From assembly GCA_964016885.1 (NCBI GenBank), contig OZ024743.1, forward strand, positions 368,404,001 through 368,468,000: a stretch of DNA of 64,000 bases, given 5' to 3'. A model generated the notes under the pieces. It was not told the origin of the DNA, did no database searches, and saw only the letters and a list, made by a program, of their open reading frames with translations. Each line of letters opens with the position of its first letter. The stretch's first letter is position 1. Below are positions 40,096 to 41,045 of the stretch, in pieces. The translations under genes and the position numbers were made by a program. Source of the DNA: Eledone cirrhosa (taxonomy: Eukaryota).

Positions 40096-40098
<3 letters not shown>

Positions 40099-41045
40099 CA
40101 AATCGTAATGGACCAAAATCGCTAAGGTGAAAAAAATACTAACTACAGACAATAGGGTTTGCTAGACTCAATTTAAGAATAAATTAAGAAAAGAATTTGG
40201 TATATCTCTTCACAAACAATATTGCGAAACCGTTCTCTCAAAGACTGCCTGGGTGATGGTAGTTACCACAATACTGGTTTTTATTTATTTTTCTTAATTT
40301 ATTCTTAAATTGAGTCTAGCAAACCCTATTGTCTGTAGTTAGTATTTTTTCACCTTGGCGATTTTGGTCCATTACGATTTGAACACACATATATATATAT
40401 ATATATATATCTGTGTTCATTTTTTCCTTTTTGTTCAGTTATATACGGTTCGGAAAAATCTTTTTCCTAGAGCTAATTTACTGTAATGAGACTATTTTGA
40501 GTTTCTAACTCAATACATGCTTTTGATATATTCGGCTCCGTTAATTCGTAGAACTATTTCAAATGTCGTGTAGACCCGGCTGCTATTTTCAGTGGCATAA
40601 GTATGCACAACATGCTAAGTTCGGGAACCATGTGCGTTATATATATACACACATTTTCCAGTTTTCTATTTGACTTAGAAGTGAGGAGGATACTAATTTC
40701 ATCAGCCACTGATGAGCCTGGAGTTTGGTATATCTCTTCACAAATAATATTGCGAAACGGTTCTATCAAAGACCGTCTGGGTGATGGTAGTTACCACAAT
40801 ACTGGTTTGTATTTATTTTTCTTAATTTATTCTTAAATTGAGTCTAGCAAACCATATTGTCTATAGTTAGTATTTTTTTCACCTTAGCGATTTTGGTCCA
40901 TTACGATTTGAACGATATATATATATGTCTGTGTTCGTTTTTCCTTTTTGTTCAGTTATATACGGCTCTGAAAAATTTTTTTCCTAGAGCTAATTTAATG
41001 TAATGAGACTATTTGAGTTTCTAACTCAATACATGCTTTTGATAT
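40096..41045 (+). mobile_element. Non-autonomous Penelope-type/retrozyme-like element (inverted arm plus ~528 bp partial tandem)
   Basis: 40096-40192 is the reverse complement of 40288-40384. 40196-40530 repeats at 40724-41045. Contains a hammerhead; TA flanks. Confidence 0.75.
40700..40786 (+). ncRNA. Type I hammerhead ribozyme motif with stable stem III
   Basis: catcagcca CTGATGA gc..gc GAAA cggt(t)ct atcaa agaccg TC tgggtgatg; stem I has 8 of 9 pairs; GUC site. Confidence 0.8.

Follow-up and report, generated by a model that had tools for sequence, protein, structure and literature searches.

A two-armed insertion of a non-coding hammerhead repeat in Eledone cirrhosa, probably a Penelope passenger copied around an RNA circle

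Layout of the insertion

The window, by which we mean the whole 64,000-nt stretch of Eledone cirrhosa DNA that was analysed (contig OZ024743.1, positions 368,404,001 to 368,468,000), holds a tandem hammerhead repeat preceded by an inverted arm and set between (TA)n tracts; otherwise it consists mostly of transposon remains and TA microsatellites. Positions within the repeat unit are numbered from u1 = 40193, and the features are these:

40053..40095, no strand: (TA)n target tract, left flank, read from the sequence
40096..40192, minus strand: inverted arm, reverse complement of u97-u192 at ~96-97%, running out into the unit's inner TA run
40193..40720, plus strand: first unit, a full 528-nt period (u1-u528), 5'-truncated inside hammerhead loop II
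40193..40258, plus strand: hammerhead remnant without CUGAUGA and the 5' strand of stem I, with GCC at the site
40446..40474, plus strand: GGCTC...GAGCT hairpin directly 3' of fixed end 1 (u253 = 40445); second copy at 40963-40991, behind 40962
40532..40555, plus strand: GGCTC...GAGCT hairpin directly 3' of fixed end 2 (u339 = 40531), with one change here (GAAC)
40681..40698, plus strand: extra helix, 5' strand (flank of stem I), from comparison and predicted pairing
40700..40786, plus strand: complete core of a type I hammerhead; the cut is predicted after C40777, and G40705 is mismatched in stem I
40721..41047, plus strand: second, partial unit, u1-u339 (327 nt), stopping at the family's fixed outer end 2, then (TA)n
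40723..40741, plus strand: extra helix, 3' strand (inside loop II), from comparison and predicted pairing
40785..40796, plus strand: small covarying hairpin behind stem I, its loop AGUU, with a second copy at 40257-40268
41042..41063, no strand: (TA)n target tract, right flank, from the sequence and the alignment of copies
41833..44820, minus strand: separate insertion, a 5'-broken Hydra-type Penelope with a reverse transcriptase (RT) and GIY-YIG frame at 43096-44820 and a hammerhead-like motif near 41897

The first-pass annotation had described a ~528-bp unit followed by a second, partial one, and a 97-bp inverted copy ahead of the array; both were confirmed, with the boundaries listed above. 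The direct repeat (40193-40531 and 40721-41047) has a period of 528 and 90.9% identity over 340 columns, and the two units differ by 14 substitutions at 295 positions outside the inner TA run. The 3' end of the element is 41047, not 41045, its placement being ambiguous within TA, and a check for a target-site duplication found (TA)n on both flanks. The inverted arm stops in the unit's inner TA run, not at u253, and this run is continuous with the (TA)n of the flank. Behind 41047 the end-2 hairpin is absent.

Several other repeats share the window. The segment 39962-40052 (+) is a 3' fragment from a different repeat family, which has 344 genome candidates; its hammerhead is compact, with the core at 39969, and was considered as part of the present family but assigned to the other one. 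Longer copies of that family have a GGCTC...GAGC hairpin behind their first end, and in one of nine other loci (L176) the family abuts a superfamily arm across a TA run. A 3' fragment of sister family B, whose period is about 500 nt, occupies 57448-57545 (-) and is represented by loci L061-L080; its ribozyme has A at core position 4 and fully covaried stems I and III. More CUGAUGA...GAAA motifs occur at 37284 (-), 37748 (+), 60877 (-), 61290 (+), 61923 (-) and 62098 (+), two sets of them being inverted pairs. Since the type at 37284, 61923 and 62098 sits downstream of a Hydra-type frame in L170, these extra motifs are likely the ends of other Penelope families. Many broken reverse transcriptase frames of LINE type were read at 166-2199, 11546-13849, 15507-18401, 30282-30749 and 33879-37225.

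Family, fixed ends and candidate helper

The core pattern of the superfamily had 2,009 exact matches in the 3.0-Gb assembly versus 0 for a reversed control, and the subfamily pattern had 107 versus 0. The copy-number check suggested by the first-pass annotation thus gave a multi-copy family, and the contrary outcome it had named, that no other copies exist, did not occur. Copies are dispersed over many chromosomes. Thirty loci were fetched from core-pattern matches (2 of the 30 were chance), and DNA searches returned 3,220 and 4,366 candidates, the best 40 of each being scored; as the loci of these DNA searches are the best matches of long queries, arm lengths are biased upward. The subfamily lies about 2.4% from its consensus (rare substitutions), and tandem periods around the ribozyme range from 437 to 538 nt in sister loci. 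An apparent common 5' start at u1 was rejected as an artefact of the query edge. Contigs of three sequencing runs from one study were compared with the unit; in the small run X4 (DNA or RNA unspecified) a single 486-nt contig of a sister variant, with TA at both ends and a depth of 537, is dominant and corresponds to 40526-40962, and it was given no weight as evidence.

The GC content is about 35%. The closed monomer folds at -130.9 kcal/mol (z -4.9, 60 shuffles), and its longest ATG frame has 77 codons, in agreement with the earlier view of a retrozyme-like unit with no coding capacity. No coding body is joined to the unit in the loci fetched, so the unit is not always attached to the coding part of a Penelope-like element, another outcome the annotation had allowed for. 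Hydra-type frames lie near 5 of 50 loci (two of these being one place), either downstream, on the opposite strand or interrupted by the element. It is very likely that the family is a non-coding, Penelope-mobilised element.

Among the 39 loci of the unit's own group, 69 arm segments ended at u339 (29), u253 (25), the inner TA run (5) or elsewhere (10); u253 and u339 are thus two fixed ends, 86 nt apart, at which 54 of the 69 segments stop. Each consists of a short TA run and then a GGCTC...GAGCT hairpin, and the hairpin at fixed end 1 is likely a reverse-transcription start signal. Two arms are present at 25 of the 39 loci: 15 of the 25 pair u253 with u339, none uses the same site twice, four (including the window) have one arm ending in the TA run, and six have one other end. 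These two-armed loci, their fixed ends and their (TA)n flanks support the Penelope-style integration proposed at first pass. Rather than being a chance fold-back, the inverted arm was likely primed as a second arm on the opposite side of the break. The tail of Penelope elements has been traced to two internal reverse-transcription start sites (Frangieh et al. 2024, PMC11167929), and by analogy the two-fixed-end pattern of the unit matches that tail.

The Hydra-type element at 41833..44820 is not part of the retrozyme insertion, and its family is the candidate helper. The clade was assigned by motifs (DKT, a CxCX5C linker, a C-terminal GIY-YIG and a (TA)n target); the RWK motif of the element is RWR in L164, and a Pfam search of the neighbouring Penelope frame returned 0 families. 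A first look gave 55,294 candidates, a figure that includes other families, and 150 scored copies stand at 97-100%. Seen in the window at 41833-45600 (-), the family is young and very abundant and has an inverted 5' arm, and its hammerhead-like motif reads CAGAAGA, with A at core position 4. Its period is about 3.26 kb, with two ends 86-87 nt apart, and a strict GCTC...GAGC pattern matched the sense strand of that period only twice, 7-9 nt behind the two ends. Because this 86-87-nt tail carries a GCTC...GAGC hairpin behind each end, a Hydra-type Penelope is the likely helper. The unit and the Hydra element have no alignable homology outside TA-rich stretches. In an alignment scan the window unit's two signals did not rank the Hydra ends first, and only the sister family's end-2 signal picked them out, narrowly (28 vs 27); since plain alignment did not single out the Hydra ends, the link to the helper rests on a short motif, its position and the tail length. 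The GCTC...GAGC motif also occurs in a third Penelope-type family, and other Hydra-type families exist.

Ribozyme architecture

The core boxes of the window copy, CUGAUGA (40709-40715), GAAA (40754-40757) and GUC (40775-40777), were read directly at the places reported at first pass, and stem I pairs 40700-40708 with 40778-40786 (8 of 9 pairs). The upstream copy had been said to begin inside stem II and to have lost GUC; it starts inside loop II and has GCC at the site. Folded alone, 40700-40786 gave a z-score of -2.1, with 6 of 200 shuffles equally good, and an Rfam scan of the window returned 0 matches at gathering level. Given that modest z-score and the lack of an Rfam match, the predicted hammerhead fold is backed by comparison between copies, not by energy. 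The G40705 mismatch makes the predicted minimum an 8-bp hairpin that hides the core; L008, which has the common base, differs. The same stem I change occurs in L009/L023 and in L012, and because it is common to three loci, a source carrying it was still copied.

For the comparison, 54 ribozymes were grouped into 25 clusters at 85% identity, after two chance matches and one copy with a broken flank had been dropped. Stems I and III show two-sided changes between subfamilies. The "long, loosely paired stem II" of the first-pass annotation gave way to a stem of 2-3 bp, with two G-C pairs invariant in 23 of 23 diverse sequences, and a loop II of 27-34 nt that is predicted to pair with the 18 nt preceding stem I. 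Behind stem I stands a 4-bp hairpin with an AGUU loop, also covarying; an extension of stem I onto the 3' flank was tried and dropped, the flank forming this covarying hairpin of its own.

Pairing between flank and loop II was stronger within copies than between them: each flank with its own loop gave -13.1 kcal/mol, versus -11.6 kcal/mol for permuted partners (p=0.0016, 25 clusters) and -7.0 kcal/mol for flanks with shuffled loops, the own partner beating the mean foreign partner in just 16 of the 25 clusters. In five control segments the own-partner effect was absent (-4.6 to -6.2 kcal/mol, p 0.23-0.99). In a 23-sequence alignment, 81.6% of the cells of the extra helix were paired and 23 cells were two-sided versus 11.9 in shuffles, values that come from a structure derived from the same sequences used to test it. 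The number of extra-helix pairs with a two-sided change, counted on alignments A1 and A3, was not above shuffles (5 vs 4.5; 256 of 500), and among five measures of loop II/flank covariation one was tied with shuffles and another was likewise not above them. We hold with good confidence that the extra helix forms.

Its function is less certain, and we give about an even chance to the helix, or at least its proximal half, acting as a pseudoknot that would hold stems I and II together. Across the aligned sequences the helix ends short of stem I and leaves both the core and stem II's G-C pairs free, and hammerheads whose stem II has 1-2 bp are activated by pseudoknots that link it to stem I (PMC3088659); both points argue against the helix serving instead as an off-switch. 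Such a switch would form first during transcription or in the mature circle, straining stem II and guarding the circle from re-cleavage until a protein refolds the RNA. The helix is long (median 16 bp) and its return linker short (median 7 nt), dimensions that leave room for this role: a helix of full length would seem incompatible with a closed stem II unless it kinks. It is also the predicted minimum-energy state in both the window copy and the closed monomer, and the Poseidon ribozyme cleaved only together with its protein in the experiments of PMC11167929. We regard the off-switch as a tentative reading and a somewhat improbable one.

Template and comparison with known systems

Our data point to a scheme that we consider probable as a whole: a two-armed insertion of a non-coding hammerhead repeat, a Penelope passenger copied around a ~520-nt RNA circle. 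The transcript of a source copy with two ribozymes would be cleaved after GUC in both of them and the monomer circularised, two steps reported for other retrozymes (PMC7229834). A Penelope protein would bind the GCTC...GAGC hairpin, cut (TA)n and begin cDNA at either of the internal sites 86 nt apart; the fixed ends and TA flanks are observed, and the binding and priming steps are modelled on those described for Poseidon in PMC11167929. Both sides of the break would be extended, one per site, and the cDNAs joined back to back, a mechanism suggested by the observed pattern of ends. In the window the long arm, 855 nt or 1.6 periods, would have crossed the cut site twice before halting in loop II. 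Because this halt left one complete ribozyme, the window copy is likely an ordinary dead-end insertion.

With one complete core only, the window copy cannot be the source, and the ~528-nt monomer that the first-pass annotation expected from consecutive cleavage of this copy does not follow from it. None of the 100 listed subfamily cores (of 107) has a same-strand partner within 1.5 kb, 12 back-to-back pairs occur among them, and a two-ribozyme source of this subfamily was not found in that list. Same-strand core pairs were found only in sister subfamilies, where L044, L141, L142 and L158 have two consecutive complete ribozymes; no locus fetched holds an array of three.

The scheme takes the family to be an element in its own right. 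The weak fold z-score and the empty Rfam scan might suggest that the unit arose by tandem or segmental duplication of DNA and resembles a hammerhead by chance; this is refuted, to near certainty, by the matches against a control of zero, the fixed ends, the dispersed copies and the covariation. The unit could otherwise be nothing but the 3' end, a pseudo-LTR, left by truncation of an autonomous Penelope element, the tail, inverted arm and TA target all being marks of Penelope (PMC8557442). About 50 of the 2,009 motif matches were examined. The unit's own signal lies upstream of 35 among 52 sampled ribozymes; the other 17 have no such signal within 330 nt, which would suit a truncated end, but their printed flanks are mostly inverted arms, TA runs and unrelated DNA. 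Moreover, the arms of L038, L044 and L048 continue upstream of u1 through a second hammerhead, that is, into the previous period and not into a frame, and outside TA-rich stretches the unit is unlike the Hydra element. We therefore think the pseudo-LTR reading very improbable.

The nature of the template is the remaining choice. Both units are present in 17 loci, where the partner unit from the same locus is always among the five nearest sequences and is the very nearest in seven, and nine variants are common to both units of one locus and present in no other locus examined; the units of one locus appear to be one template copied more than once. An RNA-editing trace in the form of an A>G strand bias was not seen (31 vs 44, p=0.72) in a test that left out variants present in more than two copies. 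A circular RNA is the template we favour, as fairly probable, over a linear RNA, which would be either the uncut transcript of a tandem source or a monomer bridged by exact template jumps; with such a template the ribozyme would be dispensable for insertion. In vitro, Poseidon inserts uncut RNA, and ribozyme mutants leave insertion unaffected (PMC11167929); variants common to a locus's units fit jumps on one RNA equally well, and no arm extends beyond 935 nt. However, arms do reach that length, whereas a linear monomer cut at u57 would give 282 nt upstream of u339. Inserted copies also break off at u339 or u253 without the hairpin that follows, so linear copying alone would be expected to shorten the element every round, whereas a circle or exact template jumps would restore its length. 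Stems I, II and III are kept covarying in the 25 clusters, which argues for selection on cleavage, and the cut site is crossed without indels in 36 of 37 aligned copies, the other breaking off before the site. The linear template is, on balance, unlikely.

As reported in PMC7229834 and 10.64898/2026.07.22.740005, metazoan non-LTR retrozymes are, like the unit, non-coding and low in GC, with a type I hammerhead in tandem; they likewise have thousands of dispersed copies, and a Penelope helper and circular RNA have been proposed for them. The Eledone family shares their sequence hallmarks (type I hammerhead in a tandem unit, no coding capacity, GC under 50%) and on these grounds would be classed with them, self-cleavage being predicted. 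If "active" means two consecutive complete ribozymes, as in Li et al. 2026, neither the window copy nor any of the 100 listed cores would be so called. The unit measures 528 nt, versus 150-450 bp in Cervera and de la Pena 2020 (PMC7229834) and 51-972 bp in Li, Clavereau and Pollet 2026 (10.64898/2026.07.22.740005). Its copies are mostly under two periods and two-armed, whereas the retrozymes described in these papers form long arrays, and its ribozyme, unlike theirs as described, has a 27-34-nt loop II that pairs with the 5' flank; in the main text of PMC7229834 the words "pseudoknot" and "inverted" do not occur. The movement of animal retrozymes by Penelope proteins is proposed, not shown, in these two sources. 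Here the link to a helper is the tail length and signal position held in common, not pLTR homology as for metazoan retrozymes there. The family thus supplies a candidate for the helper, together with two start sites and a short RNA signal, and so makes the proposal testable with the published in vitro assay.

Penelope-like elements of the Hydra clade and Poseidon (PMC8557442, PMC11167929) likewise show a partial tandem, an inverted 5' copy, a tail bounded by two start sites, and insertion at (TA)n. The unit differs from those described there in having no protein, a tail of 86 nt rather than 30-40 bp, and a full rather than minimal palindromic stem III. Non-autonomous Chlamys elements with pLTRs are mentioned by Craig et al. 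2021 (PMC8557442).

Perreault et al. 2011 (PMC3088659) describe activating pseudoknots that join stem I to stem II, those tested having 5-6 bp; here the helix has about 16 bp in two halves, and the ribozyme is a repetitive one of type I that carries a further hairpin on its 3' side. The A at core position 4 of the sister families and the Hydra element is not in the section 8 text of PMC3088659. In the literature searched on retrozymes and on pseudoknotted, Penelope and cephalopod hammerheads, neither the family nor so long a helix was met, although similar cases may exist among the ribozyme alignments of PMC8557442 (file S2) or PMC3088659. We think it doubtful, although worth stating, that this is a new hammerhead class with a 16-bp two-part helix as switch, in which a circle cut once and kept closed would be reopened or read by a Hydra-type Penelope protein; this protein would recognise the GCTC/GAGC hairpin that the two elements share and copy the circle starting from each side of a single break. 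Some 25 natural variants of the long extra helix should be useful for studying how circles escape re-cutting. Within the literature searched, the Eledone family is new among these systems in its long covarying helix between flank and loop II, in the accompanying 3' hairpin and in its link with one specific helper signal.
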